A DNA stretch of 36,273 bases from a virus. This document shows, in pieces, positions 1,798-36,273 of the stretch. A program made the position numbers and the translations under genes. The notes beneath the pieces are model-generated. The model ran no database searches. It was given only the letters and a program-made list of their open reading frames with translations, and was not told the origin of the DNA. The stretch lies in IMG/VR virus record IMGVR_UViG_3300042898_000958. One strand, 5' to 3'. Numbering within the stretch: position 1 is the stretch's first letter; the number at the start of each line of letters is the position of its first letter.

Positions 1798-2184
1798 TTA
1801 AAATGAATTACGAGGCTTAAACTCTAGTTTAACCACTTTTTCATTCGATAGTTTTACAACACTTTCAATTTGGTTAAATACATTTCTAAATGACTTATTT
1901 GTTTTCCTCATGTCTTCACATGCATTTAACGAATTGATTGTTGTTGCGTGGTTAGTCCCTCCTGTTAGCTGAACAACCTTTAACATGCTATTGTGAGTAT
2001 AGTGGTATAGCATATAACGTGCAATGTGTTTTGCATCTGCAACATCTCGCTGTCTTCCGGGTGTCGTAATTGATTCTAAAGGAATATTTGTGTACAATGC
2101 TACGTTTGTCAAAATCGAAAATACTTCGTCTCTGTAAATGTTAGCATAACTTTTTGCTCTGTATACGTCAAATGTTGCTTTCAT
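1798..2184 (-). CDS. Standalone DnaA domain-IV-like DNA-binding protein
   Basis: GRQRDVADAKHIARYMLYHYTHNSMLKVVQLTGGTNHATTINSLNACEDM parallels the DnaA C-terminal R.R.VA.PRQ.AM.L...T..S...IG..FGGRDHTTV.HA..KI. There is no AAA+ part. Confidence 0.6.
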   Translation of the reverse strand: MKATFDVYRAKSYANIYRDEVFSILTNVALYTNIPLESITTPGRQRDVADAKHIARYMLYHYTHNSMLKVVQLTGGTNHATTINSLNACEDMRKTNKSFRNVFNQIESVVKLSNEKVVKLEFKPRNSF

Positions 2185-3439: not shown

Positions 3440-3565
3440 CTACTTCTTCTTTTTAAATTTTTTCATTAATTTCTTTATATCCCCTTTATTAAAGCCAATT
3501 ATCCAATTACCATTCTCATCCATAAAATGACTTACTGGAGTTATGTATTCTTTTTTCTTTTTCAT
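3440..3565 (-). CDS. Possible small basic ORF, 41 aa
   Basis: MKKKKEYITPVSHFMDENGNWIIGFNKGDIKKLMKKFKKKK fills the 3405-3584 gap. There is no other support. Confidence 0.25.
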   Translation of the reverse strand: MKKKKEYITPVSHFMDENGNWIIGFNKGDIKKLMKKFKKKK

Positions 3566-3584
3566 TTTCGTGTAATTTAAAGTT

Positions 3585-3809
3585 TTAGTTTTCAAAATAG
3601 CCTCCTGGAATTAAAGACACAAATCTGCTCATTGGTCTTGTTGTTCCTTCTTGTTCTTTCCCGTAAGCGTATTGGAATGCTCGTACACTACTAAACACTT
3701 GTTCTCCTTGTTCTCCGAATGAGCAAATAGTATTGCTTATTGTATCAAAAAAAGCAAAGTCGTTTTGTCCTTTGCAGATTTGGTTTTTTAAATTTAAGAA
3801 TATAATCAT
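3585..3809 (-). CDS. Hypothetical protein
   Basis: 74-aa ORF starting 20 nt downstream of tRNA-like gene 1. Confidence 0.45.
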   Translation of the reverse strand: MIIFLNLKNQICKGQNDFAFFDTISNTICSFGEQGEQVFSSVRAFQYAYGKEQEGTTRPMSRFVSLIPGGYFEN

Positions 3810-3829: not shown

Positions 3830-3941
3830 TAGTCAGGACAGGACTCGAACCTGTATGATGTAAACTTTGCAGGAAACCTAACATTTATGTTCAAGGCATT
3901 ACATCTTACCACATTAGCGTATACCATTCCGCCACCTGACT
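3830..3941 (-). tRNA. tRNA-like gene 1 (112 nt): acceptor, D and T arms canonical, anticodon domain non-canonical, anticodon not assignable
   Basis: AGTCAGG-TG-GCG-GAATGGTATA-CGC...62 nt...ACAGG-TTCGAGT-CCTGT-CCTGACT-A. It has a 7-bp acceptor stem, a GG D-loop, a TTCGA T-loop, discriminator A and no encoded CCA. Confidence 0.6.
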
Positions 3942-4041
3942 ATGTTGCTTGTCTTTCCAAGCTGTCAGATACTTCTATATCAATGAGGTAGATTGTTTTT
4001 AGTTCTGTCTGTGCTTTCTGGAACTCTACCAAAACCAAGTG

Positions 4042-4171
4042 TAGTCAGGACAGGATTCGAACCTGTACCGCTTTTATATCGGCTTCTTTTCGTGTGCGCA
4101 TTATAGTAAGTTTAATTTTAACCCTATTTTTTGCTATCCAATATACGTCTATCCATTTCCGCCACCTGACC
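4042..4171 (-). tRNA. tRNA-like gene 2 (130 nt): same acceptor/D/T parts as gene 1, different 78-nt central insert
   Basis: GGTCAGG-TG-GCG-GAAATGGATAGA-CGT...78 nt...ACAGG-TTCGAAT-CCTGT-CCTGACT-A. Pair 1:72 is G:U. Confidence 0.6.
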
Positions 4172-4230
4172 ATTTGAGAGCTCTATGTTTTTAATTTGAA
4201 TTTACTTGTGAATAAACCGCACTACTGCAA

Positions 4231-5516: not shown

Positions 5517-5663
5517 TTAACGCCTTTTCTTTTTCCCTCGCAAGCCTTTTTTACAATCGTCTAAAATCTTTGCACATAACAGCCGTCTATCATGCTCCGC
5601 TTGTGCTACTGCTTGGTTGCGTTTAATTAGTTCTTCTTCGCTCTTTTCGTGAAAGTAGTTCAT
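5517..5663 (-). CDS. Small basic ORF, 48 aa (below track cutoff)
   Basis: MNYFHEKSEEELIKRNQAVAQAEHDRRLLCAKILDDCKKGLRGKKKRR. Its ATG overlaps the endolysin TGA (ATGA), and the terminator follows. Confidence 0.45.
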   Translation of the reverse strand: MNYFHEKSEEELIKRNQAVAQAEHDRRLLCAKILDDCKKGLRGKKKRR

Positions 5664-6067
5664 TTTACTACAAGTATTTGTTTGCGGTTTGAACCTAATT
5701 TAAAAGAAACGTGAACCCAAGTATAGTCATATTCATTTATTATTTGGTCAAATACCACATTATCTTTTAGCCAATCAAATAACTTTTTGTTTTCTGCTTT
5801 ACTCCCTGCACTAATATCAATAGCCTCACCCGTTACATGCTGACTCGTTCTACTGCCTTTTACAGCCTTGTTTAAAGCATGGCTACGATAGAATGAGTTA
5901 ACTCGAATAGGTTTGCCATACCATTTGCGCAACGGTTCAAAACATGCATTTGCAACAGCTTTCATTCGCTCAAATGTTTCAGCATCGGGAGTGTTGTTTA
6001 TTTTCATACGAATAGCAGTAGGGCTTACCGTTGCTTCCTCATAGCTTATGTGTTCGCTTATTTTCAT
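5660..6067 (-). CDS. Endolysin, peptidase M15 (VanY/L-Ala-D-Glu peptidase-like)
   Basis: VNSFYRSHALNKAVKGSRTSQHVTGEAIDI plus WVHVS matches the Zn-binding H..D...H pattern of M15 cell-wall peptidases. Confidence 0.85.
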   Translation of the reverse strand: MKISEHISYEEATVSPTAIRMKINNTPDAETFERMKAVANACFEPLRKWYGKPIRVNSFYRSHALNKAVKGSRTSQHVTGEAIDISAGSKAENKKLFDWLKDNVVFDQIINEYDYTWVHVSFKLGSNRKQILVVK

Positions 6068-10614: not shown

Positions 10615-12579
10615 TTATTTACGTTTAACTAATTCCGCGTTCCAAATATGCCTACAATAAGGCACGTTTACATTCATGTTAGGGTCGTGATACCATCCAC
10701 CTCTACGACTAAATGCATCATAATTTGGGATACCATACACCTGCCCTAGCTCGTCACCTATTTTGTCAATCTCTTCACGTGTAAAGTAACGTTGGTTATC
10801 CATCATAGCTTGACAAAAATCTCTACTCTCACCAATTAAAGCAGGTGCATCTGGTCGCAATCCATAGCGGTAACGAATAAACAAATCTTTAAACGTTGGA
10901 ACTTTTGCATCCTCACCTTTTGCCGTTGCAATCTGTCCGCCTTTCCCTACTTCTACTAATCCATCGGCTGCTAATGTTTCTAATGCATTACTTACAGCCG
11001 TTTTATCTATCTTTAAAACTTTGCCTATTGATTCAACTGTTATGTTAGGTGTCTTTTTAATCAAATCTAAAACGCCCTGCTCTACTTTATCAAGTGCAAA
11101 ATCTTGTTTGCCAAACACAAATTTTTTATGTTTAACCAACTCAAACTTTTCAACTGGCTCACCATACTTTAAAAACACTTCAATGTCTAGGCTGTCATCT
11201 GATTGGCTGTTAAAGTGCGAACACTTGCTAAATGCTGCTCCCGTTGCGGAATCTGTTGCTACTATATCACCGCCCTCAACAGGTGGTCTATTAATTATTG
11301 CACGAACTTCATTTTTCGTCAAGTTATTTAACACCTTAGTAGCAACCAATGGGCTTAATGCGTTTAAGTCATCTACTACGCTTGAAATTTGCGCCTTAGT
11401 ATCTAATGGCTCACGTCCTACTATCTCCCTCATCTCATCTTTAGTTAAGATACTCATTAAAGTAGCTTCACCAAATGAAGGCATGATAGGCTCAACAGGT
11501 ATAATACTTAATCTACCTTTAACTGGTGCGAATAAGTTGTATATCTTTTCTTGTACTTTTTGACGTGGTGTAACGTATGTATTTTGAAACAAATTAAACG
11601 CATCAACCATTTCGTTTCTGCCACCTAATTGCCCCTCTACACGAACACCAAATAACATAGGTGAAGTTATTTTATGCCCTACAAATATCTCTTGCTGTAT
11701 CGTCTCATTTAATGCGTTGTATTTGTCCGCAAAATCTCCAGCCCCTAAATCTAAGATCTCTGGTACACGTGTAACATCATCCACAAAATCAATTAAGAAT
11801 ACACCAGCTTTATCTGTTGGTGCAAACTTAGCTTTCATTTTATTTTCTACACTCTTAATCTCGTCATCATTTGGAACTCCATTTTTGAAAACAATCATTT
11901 TAGATCCTTTAAATCCGTTTTGGATTTCGGCTCGGTGAAAGTTAGCTATTTCAGCATCTGTTATAATTGAAGGAACTGCCCCAATATAATCAGGTAAAGT
12001 GTATACGTCTAAATTCGGACGATATGTTTTGTAGTAAAATAGTGATTCTTTTGCTTTGGTTTCAGGTTCCCATGCTGGATAAGTGTAATCTATTTTAGGT
12101 CTTGAATTTTCGCTGCCATCCTCATTTATCCAATCATCACTAATATAAAAATTAGTATTATCTTCGTTTGAACGAACCTTGCAATAATCTATGTGGGATA
12201 TGTAATTCTTTTTCTTGTCCTTAGACTTTGTTACCTTTAAATAACAACCATTAAACAGCTCCACGTCTAATGTAGTCTTTGCCAATAAATCGTCAAGAGT
12301 TTCATATGGGTTAGGACTATCAACGTATGTTTTTAATAACGCTTGCTCTTCGCCTTCCATGCCGTTGGCGTTAAACGTAAAGCCTTGCCCTTTAATGTAC
12401 AACTGTTTATTGGTTATAATAGCGTTATGTTTTGCGCTTCGATTAAACAATAAAACGAGGTACTGGGGATAGTCATTTGTTTCACCGTACTTAACCCAAT
12501 CTTCACCTCTTACCTCGACAAATGTAGGTACTTTATCGTTTGAGAATTTTACGTTTATTAGCGTGTTATTGTAAGCCAT
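10615..12579 (-). CDS. Portal protein fused to a winged-helix segment and a MuF/SPP1-gp7-like C-terminal domain
   Basis: The N-terminal WVKYGETNDYPQYL...SAKHNAIITNKQLYIKGQG is portal-like. Residues ~503-544 (VLDLIKKTPNITVESIGKVLKIDKTAVSNALETLAADGLVEV) are MarR-type wHTH-like. The C-terminus (FCQAMM...YFTREEI...RRGGWYH...PYCRHIW) is MuF-like. Confidence 0.65.
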   Translation of the reverse strand: MAYNNTLINVKFSNDKVPTFVEVRGEDWVKYGETNDYPQYLVLLFNRSAKHNAIITNKQLYIKGQGFTFNANGMEGEEQALLKTYVDSPNPYETLDDLLAKTTLDVELFNGCYLKVTKSKDKKKNYISHIDYCKVRSNEDNTNFYISDDWINEDGSENSRPKIDYTYPAWEPETKAKESLFYYKTYRPNLDVYTLPDYIGAVPSIITDAEIANFHRAEIQNGFKGSKMIVFKNGVPNDDEIKSVENKMKAKFAPTDKAGVFLIDFVDDVTRVPEILDLGAGDFADKYNALNETIQQEIFVGHKITSPMLFGVRVEGQLGGRNEMVDAFNLFQNTYVTPRQKVQEKIYNLFAPVKGRLSIIPVEPIMPSFGEATLMSILTKDEMREIVGREPLDTKAQISSVVDDLNALSPLVATKVLNNLTKNEVRAIINRPPVEGGDIVATDSATGAAFSKCSHFNSQSDDSLDIEVFLKYGEPVEKFELVKHKKFVFGKQDFALDKVEQGVLDLIKKTPNITVESIGKVLKIDKTAVSNALETLAADGLVEVGKGGQIATAKGEDAKVPTFKDLFIRYRYGLRPDAPALIGESRDFCQAMMDNQRYFTREEIDKIGDELGQVYGIPNYDAFSRRGGWYHDPNMNVNVPYCRHIWNAELVKRK

Positions 12580-35351: not shown

Positions 35352-35567
35352 TTATTTTGATTTAAAGGTTTCGTTGTAATATTGTTCTGCTATTTGTTGA
35401 TTGTCTAATACATGTTCAGATGGGTATGTATTTTGCCCTTTTATAAAAAAATCAACTATCTGTTGCTTTTCCATTTCTTTGGCTTGGTCACGTATCTTAA
35501 TAGCATTTTCATATCCTTGTACAATATCTAATTGCTCAAATAACCATTCTACTGCTGTTTGTTTCAT
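35352..35567 (-). CDS. Small protein, paralogue of 35569..35799
   Basis: MKQTAVEWL...QAKEMEKQ...TFKSK. Confidence 0.6.
   Translation of the reverse strand: MKQTAVEWLFEQLDIVQGYENAIKIRDQAKEMEKQQIVDFFIKGQNTYPSEHVLDNQQIAEQYYNETFKSK
35540..35567 (-). repeat. 28-nt direct repeat (gene duplication), copy 1
   Basis: ataaccattctactgctgtttgtttcat is identical to 35772-35799. Confidence 0.85.
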
Positions 35568-35568
35568 T

Positions 35569-35799
35569 TTATTCTGACTTAAAGGTTTGGTTGGTAAATA
35601 TTTCTACAAATTCACACGCTTCTCTTTCATCAAATCCAAGCACATTACGGGATTCTTTTGTATAATCTTTTAATTGTTGAACTAAATCAATCATTCTTTG
35701 CTTTTCCATTTCCTTGGCTTGTTCTAAAAAATGTTCCCAATCTCCTAATGGATATTCTATTTGTTGGTTATATAACCATTCTACTGCTGTTTGTTTCAT
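35569..35799 (-). CDS. Small protein, paralogue of 35352..35567
   Basis: ATG at 35799 (MKQTAVEWLY...QAKEMEKQ...TFKSE). The track start at 35853 overlaps the upstream gene. Confidence 0.6.
   Translation of the reverse strand: MKQTAVEWLYNQQIEYPLGDWEHFLEQAKEMEKQRMIDLVQQLKDYTKESRNVLGFDEREACEFVEIFTNQTFKSE
35772..35799 (-). repeat. 28-nt direct repeat, copy 2
   Basis: Identical to 35540-35567. Confidence 0.85.
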
Positions 35800-35803
35800 A
35801 ATG

Positions 35804-36273
35804 TTAGTTTTTTTTAAATTGGTTAAACCATTCCTCAGTGGTTCTATCGTCATTGGTAGTTAAATAGTGCATAAAACTAATTAAAATCTGAATCACTTCT
35901 CCCTCACTATACTTATTCTTGTCTTGTTCTTGTTTAGGTTCTTCTTTTGGAATGATGATTTTCCAACCATATTTAGTTTGGAATTTTCCATTATGTTTTG
36001 ACAAATCAACTTCAACCTCAACATACTCACAAGTAGGATTCTTTACAAACCATTCTAAGAACTCATCATCAATAGCTTGTACGCCATCTTTGATTAAGTC
36101 TTGGTCTGTTGTTAGGATGATTTTTTTGCAATTATCTTTATGTCTTGTAGAAATTACATCAAAATTGTTACACCAAACATCATCAAGTTTAGTACATTTT
36201 TCAATATGAAACCCATCAGATTCTCCTGTGATTTTGAATAATTCAACCAAATACCAATCTCCTTCTTTAATTT
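35804..36273 (-). CDS. Junction-spanning gene, C-terminal part (continues from 281->1)
   Basis: The frame is open to the window end, and 36147-36273 duplicates 1-127. See feature 1-281. Confidence 0.7.
   Translation of the reverse strand, partial: IKEGDWYLVELFKITGESDGFHIEKCTKLDDVWCNNFDVISTRHKDNCKKIILTTDQDLIKDGVQAIDDEFLEWFVKNPTCEYVEVEVDLSKHNGKFQTKYGWKIIIPKEEPKQEQDKNKYSEGEVIQILISFMHYLTTNDDRTTEEWFNQFKKN
36147..36273. repeat. Direct terminal repeat, copy 2 (identical to 1-127)
   Basis: Same 127 nt as the window start. Confidence 0.9.

Follow-up and report, generated by a model that had tools for sequence, protein, structure and literature searches.

Phage genes for tRNA-Leu-like RNAs in which a variable domain stands in place of the anticodon arm

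Introduction

The viral genome held in IMG/VR as IMGVR_UViG_3300042898_000958 (36,273 nucleotides, nt; this whole stretch is called the window here) carries on its minus strand two neighbouring genes, gene A (4042-4171) and gene B (3830-3941), which begin and end like transfer RNAs (tRNAs) for leucine, and the locus raises the question of what such genes are for when the region between their D and T arms is not that of a tRNA. We report that both belong to a large family of phage RNAs, apparently not described before, whose members enclose a hypervariable cargo in a constant chassis, and that these RNAs pass the Rfam threshold for tRNA yet do not decode. On balance we think it probable that they are chassis RNAs derived from tRNA-Leu, matured like tRNAs and possibly leucylated, whose variable cargo would act in trans as an effector.

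Results

Two tRNA-Leu-like genes without an anticodon arm

The two genes and their parts are as follows.

4042..4171, minus strand: gene A, tRNA-Leu-like chassis RNA, 130 nt with a 78-nt cargo; Rfam tRNA score 30.9 bits
4165..4171, minus strand: gene A acceptor 5' strand GGUCAGG, pairing with CCUGACU at 4043-4049, with a G1-U72 wobble
4145..4162, minus strand: gene A D arm of tRNA-Leu type, GCG / GAAAUGGAUAGA / CGU, with a 12-nt loop
4067..4144, minus strand: gene A cargo domain, 78 nt including position 26 and U48
4050..4066, minus strand: gene A T arm, ACAGG-UUCGAAU-CCUGU, from the sequence and the Rfam alignment
4042..4049, minus strand: gene A acceptor 3' strand CCUGACU (4043-4049) and discriminator A73 (4042)
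3830..3941, minus strand: gene B, tRNA-Leu-like chassis RNA, 112 nt with a 62-nt cargo; Rfam tRNA score 37.1 bits
3935..3941, minus strand: gene B acceptor 5' strand AGUCAGG, pairing with 3831-3837
3917..3932, minus strand: gene B D arm, GCG / GAAUGGUAUA / CGC, with a 10-nt loop
3855..3916, minus strand: gene B cargo domain, 62 nt, consisting of a basal helix GAUGUAA/UUACAUC, then UGC/GCA, and an apical hairpin
3838..3854, minus strand: gene B T arm, ACAGG-UUCGAGU-CCUGU, from the sequence and the Rfam alignment
3830..3837, minus strand: gene B acceptor 3' strand CCUGACU (3831-3837) and discriminator A73 (3830)

An earlier description of this locus, made from the letters alone (the sequence-only reading), had listed the acceptor stem, U8, the D and T arms, A73, the lack of an encoded CCA and inserts of 78 and 62 nt, and each of these statements checks out in the sequence. 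Both genes have U8, a 3-bp D stem, GG in the D loop and U3-A70, and the tertiary set U8-A14, A15-U48, G18G19 in a class-II D loop and A73 is complete in each. Gene A is followed by C at 4041, which is typical of the family, within a downstream CAC; the corresponding letters after gene B are CAA, and CCA is encoded in neither case. From gene B an A-rich leader of 20 nt leads to the ATG of an open reading frame (ORF, 3809..3585). The genes share a 23-mer that occurs twice in the window (0.00 copies expected), and comparison of the two inserts upholds the earlier claim that they are mutually unrelated. In the gene A cargo, a helix AUAUUGG/CCGAUAU closes around an A/U-rich interior. The long-range pairings that the sequence-only reading proposed thus exist, although its gene labels were swapped relative to its listing order: ATATTGG/CCGATAT belongs to the 130-nt gene and GATGTAA/TTACATC to the 112-nt gene. 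It also had its second gene directly following a copy of a post-stop repeat, which proved wrong, the stretch in question being a weak A/T-rich match of 27 nt (74% identity) that comes after gene B and not before it, since it overlaps the gene B 3' end and the leader of the next ORF.

Searching 600 nt with the Rfam tRNA model (RF00005, gathering score 29) returned gene B at 37.1 bits (E = 3e-6) and gene A at 30.9 bits (E = 2e-4). These matches rest on the acceptor, D and T arms, and in both genes the anticodon arm is skipped as a local gap of 41-65 nt (65 nt in gene A, whose alignment spans model positions 1-71), so that the covariance model yields a tRNA score without a standard cloverleaf. 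ARAGORN reported no tRNA and no transfer-messenger RNA (tmRNA) anywhere in the window, and an anticodon arm placed right after position 26 (5-bp stem, 7-nt loop, U33, purine 37) was found in neither gene A nor gene B. The claim that a canonical anticodon arm is missing is therefore borne out by both programs.

A constant chassis around unrelated inserts

Using the exact 3' 23-mer of the window genes, ACAGGTTCGARTCCTGTCCTGAC, as a probe, a scan of IMG/VR placed it in at least 120 viral contigs, with as many as 7 copies per locus and, in one case, seven within a single 5-kb stretch; lake time series predominate among the hits. The 155 copies extracted among the matches listed measure 70-191 nt in total and have constant ends: the 5' 25 nt read AGTCAGGTGGCGGAAT(T)GGTAGACGC, that is, AGTCAGG plus a D arm of tRNA-Leu type, and the 3' 26 nt comprise U48, the T arm, the acceptor strand and A73. 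What lies between them ranges from about 16 to 146 nt. Pooled scans gave 202 distinct members, and because these form just 20 small clusters of cargo similarity, the largest with 4 members, there are some 170 mutually unrelated cargo types. Other members score 30-45 bits against the Rfam tRNA model. The window genes carry the consensus chassis, the tRNA-type flanks and the non-tRNA insert between D and T arms that define the family.

Among 185,579 species genomes (32 million contigs), the 23-mer occurs 21 times, all on contigs of metagenome-assembled genomes (MAGs), 11 of them with a Bacteroidota label (Chitinophagales, Sediminibacterium, Flavobacterium and others). None of these 21 occurrences is a host tRNA, which rules out a host tRNA or an attachment-site remnant, and we therefore regard the element as phage-borne. 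Full-text literature searches, including searches with the literal sequence, found no published description of the RNA family; a passage in one virome-wide survey mentions unspecified 'tRNA-like' candidates (PMC10690425).

Two further observations concern the architecture and company of these genes. In L332 and L333 (alignment A2, columns 16-46), L072 and L109, the D loop has gained an extra hairpin of 23-60 nt, placed after A15 and ahead of G18G19, and because these are independent insertions at one site, the chassis evidently tolerates cargo at a second position. In L018, a phage tRNA array with three cargo-bearing tRNA-like genes also contains, between two tRNA genes at 4124-4186 (plus strand), a match to the freshwater-1 RNA of Rfam (RF02979) at 70.1 bits, just below that model's gathering score of 72.

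Chassis stems covary and flanks resemble those of tRNA genes

Because the first sample had been selected on 3' stem sequences, a second was anchored on the D arm alone; it recovered ordinary tRNA-Leu genes together with cargo-bearing RNAs that have many different acceptor and T stems. For 31 of the latter, aligned with the cargo excised, 98.9% of the cells in the chassis stems are paired, against 35-44% in slid controls, with the caveat that the 3'-end finder had demanded at least 6 of 7 acceptor pairs and at least 4 of 5 T-stem pairs. Changes on both sides of a pair occur at 11 of the 12 variable pairs (80 cells), and none of 500 shuffles did as well. The chassis is under RNA-level selection, and the covariation of acceptor and T stems that the sequence-only reading had called for is thus present.

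The flanks, too, are of the kind found at canonical tRNAs in the same phage loci: T stands at position -1 in 81% of members, and in 97% the discriminator is succeeded by C, beyond which the sequence is A-rich. A quarter or so of the family (37/145) has a further tRNA or tRNA-like gene no more than 300 nt away, and in every such case the two share a strand. As flanks and neighbourhood match those of real tRNAs, we infer cleavage by RNase P and 3' maturation of the tRNA type.

Decoding and splicing do not account for the inserts

If these were genuine tRNAs with short removable introns or insertions, as the sequence-only reading had allowed for inserts of 40-48 nt, or else decaying tRNA pseudogenes, an anticodon arm should be recoverable from them in whole or in halves. 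A positional search for a canonical anticodon stem-loop yielded one such structure among 146 members (chance expectation 0.64), and its bearer is a genuine tRNA-Asn with the same T arm. With default settings ARAGORN called 33 of 164 members tRNAs, but their anticodons are scattered, often unnatural, and in some cases of two or four bases. With introns allowed it called 82 of 109 real long members and 80-81 of the same 109 with shuffled cargo, with random isotypes and intron positions; being equally frequent on shuffled cargo, these calls are an artefact and carry no information. Throughout the family, neither side of the insert, next to the D arm or ahead of the T arm, shows conserved sequence that could serve as exon halves. 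Rfam searches at permissive E-values (over the window region, 19 family loci and 3 loci of the cargo family 1 described below) matched the elements to tRNA only, and no intron, ribozyme or riboswitch family matched any cargo among those loci.

A hidden anticodon arm or intron is thus ruled out by the negative default run in the window, the shuffle-equal intron calls and the positional search. The broader idea of intron-bearing tRNAs (whether of group I or bulge-helix-bulge type) or decaying ones can appeal to Rfam scores above threshold, to the 'introns' that ARAGORN reports and to one clean case of an interrupted tRNA-Leu given below, but a group I intron would need far more length than the inserts offer, and neither covarying stems nor conserved cargo would be expected of pseudogenes; we find it scarcely tenable.

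The clean case is found at positions 7827-7979 of L245 (IMGVR_UViG_3300015214_000024, a 455-kb contig of an unrelated jumbo phage), where about 68 nt separate U34 precisely from A35 in a tRNA-Leu(UAA) whose anticodon arm, CAGGGACUU ... AAAAUCCCUUG, is perfect in all other respects. The group I intron of cyanobacterial tRNA-Leu has its insertion site here, but the insert of about 68 nt is far too short to be one.

The chassis keeps the leucine identity set

Set against every isotype of canonical tRNA in these loci, the D arm of the family comes nearest to phage tRNA-Leu, with a score of 8.3 against at most 5.0 for other isotypes. Conservation across the family is 96% for U8, 89% each for A14 and A15, and 92% for G18G19; U48 is present in 118 and A73 in 127 of 140 members. 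The leucyl-tRNA synthetase (LeuRS) of Escherichia coli needs A73, A15-U48, G18G19, U8-A14 and the interactions between D and T loops, and can dispense with the anticodon and variable arms (PMC9976931). This set is retained by the window genes and by the family, judged by rules that are those of E. coli and may differ from those of the host, which is probably a member of the Bacteroidota. Since LeuRS reads only A73 and the elbow, an RNA without an anticodon may be leucylated, and leucylation of the chassis RNAs is plausible from their sequence. All cargo-bearing RNAs seen have a Leu-type body, which is among the few identities that ignore the anticodon. The nearest-isotype result and the retained leucine set strengthen what the sequence-only reading had offered as its second option, a tRNA mimic of Leu-type look with an expanded anticodon domain.

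Some tRNA-Leu genes of phages are also of unusual shape: in L025, L051, L052, L064 and L065, several canonical phage tRNA-Leu(UAA/UAG) genes of 74-76 nt are class-I-shaped, having no long variable arm, and keep the Leu-type D arm and A73.

Cargos are conserved apart from their surroundings

Pairs of related cargos are 62-95% identical, while their flanks of 400 nt on either side align at the random level (0.55). One cargo type, cargo family 1, occurs in 46 viral contigs of 4-271 kb, always within a tRNA-like scaffold. Its core is nearly invariant while the scaffold stems around it vary with compensation: acceptors include AGTCAGG/CCTGACT, AGTGAGG/CCTCACT, AGTAGAG/CTCTATT and TTTAGGG/CCCTGAA, T stems include ACAGG/CCTGT, ACAAG/CTTGT and GTAGG/CCTAC, and double changes are found at 8 pairs of the scaffold (0 of 500 shuffles). 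Inside this cargo, the interleaved helices AGGUUA/UAACCU and GAUAAC/GUUAUC are 100% paired, with one compensatory change, and could form a pseudoknot. In another cargo, shared by L012 and L047, a helix has been swapped with full compensation and its loop conserved. The cargo is under selection, apart from its genomic context and from the sequence of the stems.

The window genes add to this on a smaller scale. Homologues of the gene A cargo are identical copies only, and conservation independent of the surrounding genome is seen for gene B from one homologue, 88% identical over 127 nt, in the metagenome contig L372, whose remaining 12 kb are unrelated to the window. The basal helices are identical in this pair, GATGTAA/TTACATC being invariant in the single homologue found, and the apical hairpin is kept through a change from AACA-UAAA-UGUU to AAUC-AAA-GAUU. 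Sought for covariation of the window cargos, further copies amounted to the identical ones of gene A and this homologue of gene B, and about 80 loci of related phages lack the elements. Towards its high-coordinate end the window has two copies (35529-35573 and 35764-35817), at the starts of small ORFs, of a segment of about 50 nt, which recurs in L372 at 11802-11856 with 85-89% identity, about 170 nt from the gene B copy there.

This conservation bears on the idea that the RNAs are decoys or sponges made of a tRNA top half, in which the chassis would titrate a tRNA-targeting nuclease, a modification enzyme, LeuRS or EF-Tu, and the cargo would merely block decoding and stay folded. The highly conserved chassis with its leucine identity elements is what such a decoy would look like; its sporadic, accessory-like distribution, with about 80 loci of related phages lacking the element, would suit it too, and phage tRNAs that counter tRNA-targeting defences are known (PMC10264068, PMC11464382). 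Within a cargo family, though, conservation is stronger in the cargo than in the stems; the same cargo is retained in unrelated contexts; and one genome holds several copies with different cargos where a pure decoy would need one kind only. For these reasons we consider a decoy unlikely. Its narrower version in the sequence-only reading, a decoy for anticodon nucleases, gained no support because the RNAs have no anticodon loop to be cut, and a pure decoy leaves the conservation of the cargo beyond the stems unexplained.

The conserved 5' part of cargo family 1 has a peculiarity of its own. In members such as L324 and L327 (alignment A4, columns 29-50) it reads AUG AAU AAA GGU UAA UAG UAA, a frame of four codons followed by three consecutive stops, with AUA for AUG in some members; the only two substitutions seen, AAU to AAC and AAA to AAG, are both synonymous in this frame.

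Such a frame would fit RNAs that work somewhat as tmRNA does, a leucine-charged chassis entering the ribosome or feeding an aminoacyl-transferase while the cargo provides a short message or a ribosome-binding module. Leucine identity is kept though decoding is impossible, and tmRNA itself is a precedent for a tRNA top half with its anticodon arm replaced. Two synonymous changes are weak evidence, however; the cargos have no reading frame, resume-codon context or set of pseudoknots in common, and some are just 16-30 nt long. There is U3-A70 in place of the G3-U70 of alanine identity, and a true D stem that the tRNA-like domain of tmRNA does not have. We rate this kind of function as very improbable, and tmRNA proper is ruled out by the negative ARAGORN search, by U3-A70, by the real D stem and by the absence of an ORF shared among cargos.

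One cargo type, found at L003 787-892, in L011 (minus-strand coordinates 3530-3632), L042 and L297, has a conserved CACCUCC(CC)AAGGUUGAG, of which CACCUCC is the anti-Shine-Dalgarno-like motif of the 16S ribosomal RNA (rRNA) 3' end.

Genomic setting of the window genes

The window is a tailed-phage genome with every gene on the minus strand, among them portal, terminase, tape measure and tail fibres. An M15 endolysin (5660-6067) and a handful of small ORFs lie upstream of genes A and B; this endolysin aside, their neighbours are unannotated small ORFs. The ORF at 1798-2184 (minus strand) encodes a DnaA C-terminal helix-turn-helix domain (PF08299, E = 3e-11), and it and the M15 peptidase endolysin (5660-6067, minus strand) flank the block of small genes that holds both RNA genes. 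No GenBank phage matched the RNA-gene region or 25 kb of the window, and a short-query search of GenBank found ordinary T arms only. The near-identical genomes L223 and L225 carry both genes, their gene A copies being identical, and the RNA genes are absent from about 80 loci of phages with the window's tail protein. Distribution among related phages is sporadic, as is typical of accessory genes.

Some relatives of the window phage (L147 10883-10952, L154 12259-12328 and L156 9893-9962) have a 70-nt tRNA-like gene of another kind, GACGGGG...GUAGGUUCGAAUCCUAC CUCCGUC C, which has neither a normal D arm nor an anticodon arm and is followed 76 nt downstream by a class-II tRNA of 84 nt whose anticodon loop has GUA.

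A rival explanation is a role in cis, the elements being tRNA-like cleavage signals, on the lines of plant mitochondrial t-elements or of the mitochondrial tRNA punctuation model, through which RNase P and a 3' endonuclease would cut polycistronic phage transcripts and set mRNA ends and stability, and the released RNA a by-product. The elements are indeed co-oriented with their neighbours and have flanks of tRNA type, and those of the window stand between lysis genes (the M15 peptidase at 5660-6067) and small genes, with gene B 20 nt before an ATG. Yet cleavage needs the acceptor and T arms only, which leaves the conserved Leu-type D arm, A73 and U48 unexplained, together with the conservation of cargo across unrelated flanks and the tandem copies with different cargos. 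Punctuation of this kind is in our view decidedly unlikely; it and the decoy are disfavoured mainly because conservation is tighter in the cargo than in the stems.

Discussion

Under the trans-acting effector explanation that we favour, a constant chassis (acceptor, Leu-type D arm, T arm, U8-A14, A15-U48 and A73) would hold a cargo that replaces the anticodon and variable-arm region. The RNA would be transcribed together with its minus-strand neighbours; RNase P would cleave its 5' end, with U at -1; and the host tRNA 3'-end pathway would remove the C/A-rich trailer, CCA being added as for the bona fide tRNAs of these phages. The L-shaped elbow would give a stable, abundant RNA, for which leucylation and binding of EF-Tu are possible, and the cargo would then act in trans as a specific effector, whether as a binding site, an aptamer, a mimic or an antisense element, against a component of the host or of a rival phage. 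From the genes we infer that the RNAs are transcribed, processed, given CCA and charged, that they act in trans and that the cargo binds a target.

Several results weigh against this explanation. The cargos of genes A and B are thermodynamically ordinary (z = -0.04 and -0.41; folded alone, that of gene A has a minimum free energy of -7.2 kcal/mol), and across the family cargos fold only modestly better than shuffles (mean z = -0.63). The cargo types have no convincing motif in common, show no excess complementarity to rRNA, match no Rfam family among the loci searched, and, for the window cargos, are antisense to the phage's own translation start regions at no more than the null level. Clustering of ORFs from 141 loci in search of a partner protein found nothing recurrent near the elements, the best cluster being an 80-aa protein at 30 of the 141 loci with a median distance of 2 kb. 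If stability and processing alone mattered, bodies of other isotypes would be expected, and since only the Leu type is seen, charging or a chassis-specific partner may be the real point. One exact chassis (AGTCAGG/ACAGG) is more abundant than structure alone explains, and as most loci were gathered with patterns derived from the family, figures of prevalence are biased. In the comparison with E. coli rRNA (L226), the cargos share 18 exact 11-13-mers in the sense orientation where about 8 would be expected, and none in antisense where the expectation is about 6; the sense excess probably reflects the generic composition of structured RNA and supports the assigned strand.

More tentatively, the family might be a natural RNA display system of phages mainly infecting freshwater Bacteroidota, in which one leucylatable chassis, brought to maturity by host tRNA enzymes, presents hypervariable, horizontally exchanged and structured effector domains. 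These effectors could be aptamers, protein decoys or mimics used in conflicts between phage and host or between phages, an RNA counterpart of constant and variable domains.

The nearest relatives of these RNAs are class-II tRNA-Leu genes, including those of the same phages, with which they share the 7-bp acceptor, U8, the 3-bp D stem, a loop of the form GAAU(U)GGUAGA, A15-U48, the T arm GGUUCGAAUCC, A73, the lack of an encoded CCA and identical gene flanks. Unlike these, family members have no anticodon stem-loop or recognisable variable arm and carry 16-146 nt instead, for a total of up to 191 nt or more. The closest functional analogy is man-made: in the 'tRNA scaffold' of Ponchon and Dardel for recombinant RNA, the insert reportedly replaces the anticodon arm. 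There the insert is shielded by the tRNA body, through which RNase P, 3' processing and CCA addition are enlisted. The engineered bodies are those of tRNA-Lys and tRNA-Met, whereas the phage family is natural, has a Leu-type body, occurs in many phage genomes, and is only predicted to be processed in this way.

Like the family, tmRNA (SsrA) has a top half derived from tRNA with the anticodon arm replaced by a large functional domain; it is processed by RNase P and aminoacylated. It is 260-400 nt long, has G3-U70 and a tag ORF with pseudoknots but lacks a D stem, works with the partner SmpB and has one conserved function, in contrast to the phage RNAs of 70-190 nt with their U3-A70, true D arm of Leu type and hundreds of unrelated inserts. 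Among classical phage RNAs, the species 1 and species 2 RNAs of T4 (rnaC and rnaD) are small stable RNAs from a tRNA cluster whose function is still unknown. T4 rnaC is the closest analogue in ending with a T arm (CCGGGUUCGAAUCCCGG) and an acceptor-like 3' strand, but it has no sequence relationship to the family, a long 5' extension, no Leu-type D arm, a single copy and no constant/variable family around it; in Rfam it scores 17.5 bits against tRNA-Sec and has no tRNA score.

Other non-decoding relatives of tRNA differ in how the extra RNA is attached. The TMERs of murid gammaherpesvirus 68 are a viral tRNA-like handle for variable small-RNA cargo, each genome having several copies whose cargos differ; their pre-miRNA hairpins lie 3' of the tRNA-like unit, are released by RNase Z and are transcribed by RNA polymerase III in a eukaryotic host, whereas the phage cargo is embedded. 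YrlA and the bacterial Y RNAs likewise mimic the elbow of acceptor, T and D arms outside translation, for tethering to Ro60, but are circularly permuted, end in the Ro-binding stem, have a loop-closed acceptor mimic and are linked to rsr. The phage elements end in the acceptor stem, have no recurrent neighbour protein and no match in Rfam to such RNAs, which rules out YrlA and Y RNA. The t-elements of plant mitochondria are tRNA-like modules for mRNA end formation, without a D arm and acting in cis. Neither YrlA nor the t-elements have a hypervariable embedded cargo, and the constant/variable display reading, if confirmed, would come close to being categorically new.

One consequence is practical: because their Rfam scores exceed the tRNA threshold, automatic annotation and tRNA-based analyses of codon usage or host prediction in phage genomes will miscount these genes as tRNAs, and, if our explanation is right, they would account for a share of the 'odd', 'pseudo' and 'undetermined' tRNA calls in viromes. 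It would also raise the question of why anticodon-independent leucine identity alone is used, give a testable context to the 50-year-old puzzle of stable RNAs from tRNA clusters such as T4 species 1 and 2, and supply natural chassis-cargo pairs ready for RNA engineering. If the RNAs are expressed and processed as we propose, phages would have arrived independently, and on a large scale, at the tRNA-scaffold trick of biotechnologists, with hundreds of distinct and conserved cargos, and the family would be a large untouched class of phage non-coding RNAs, among which factors for anti-defence or host takeover, RNA mimics and natural aptamers are candidates.

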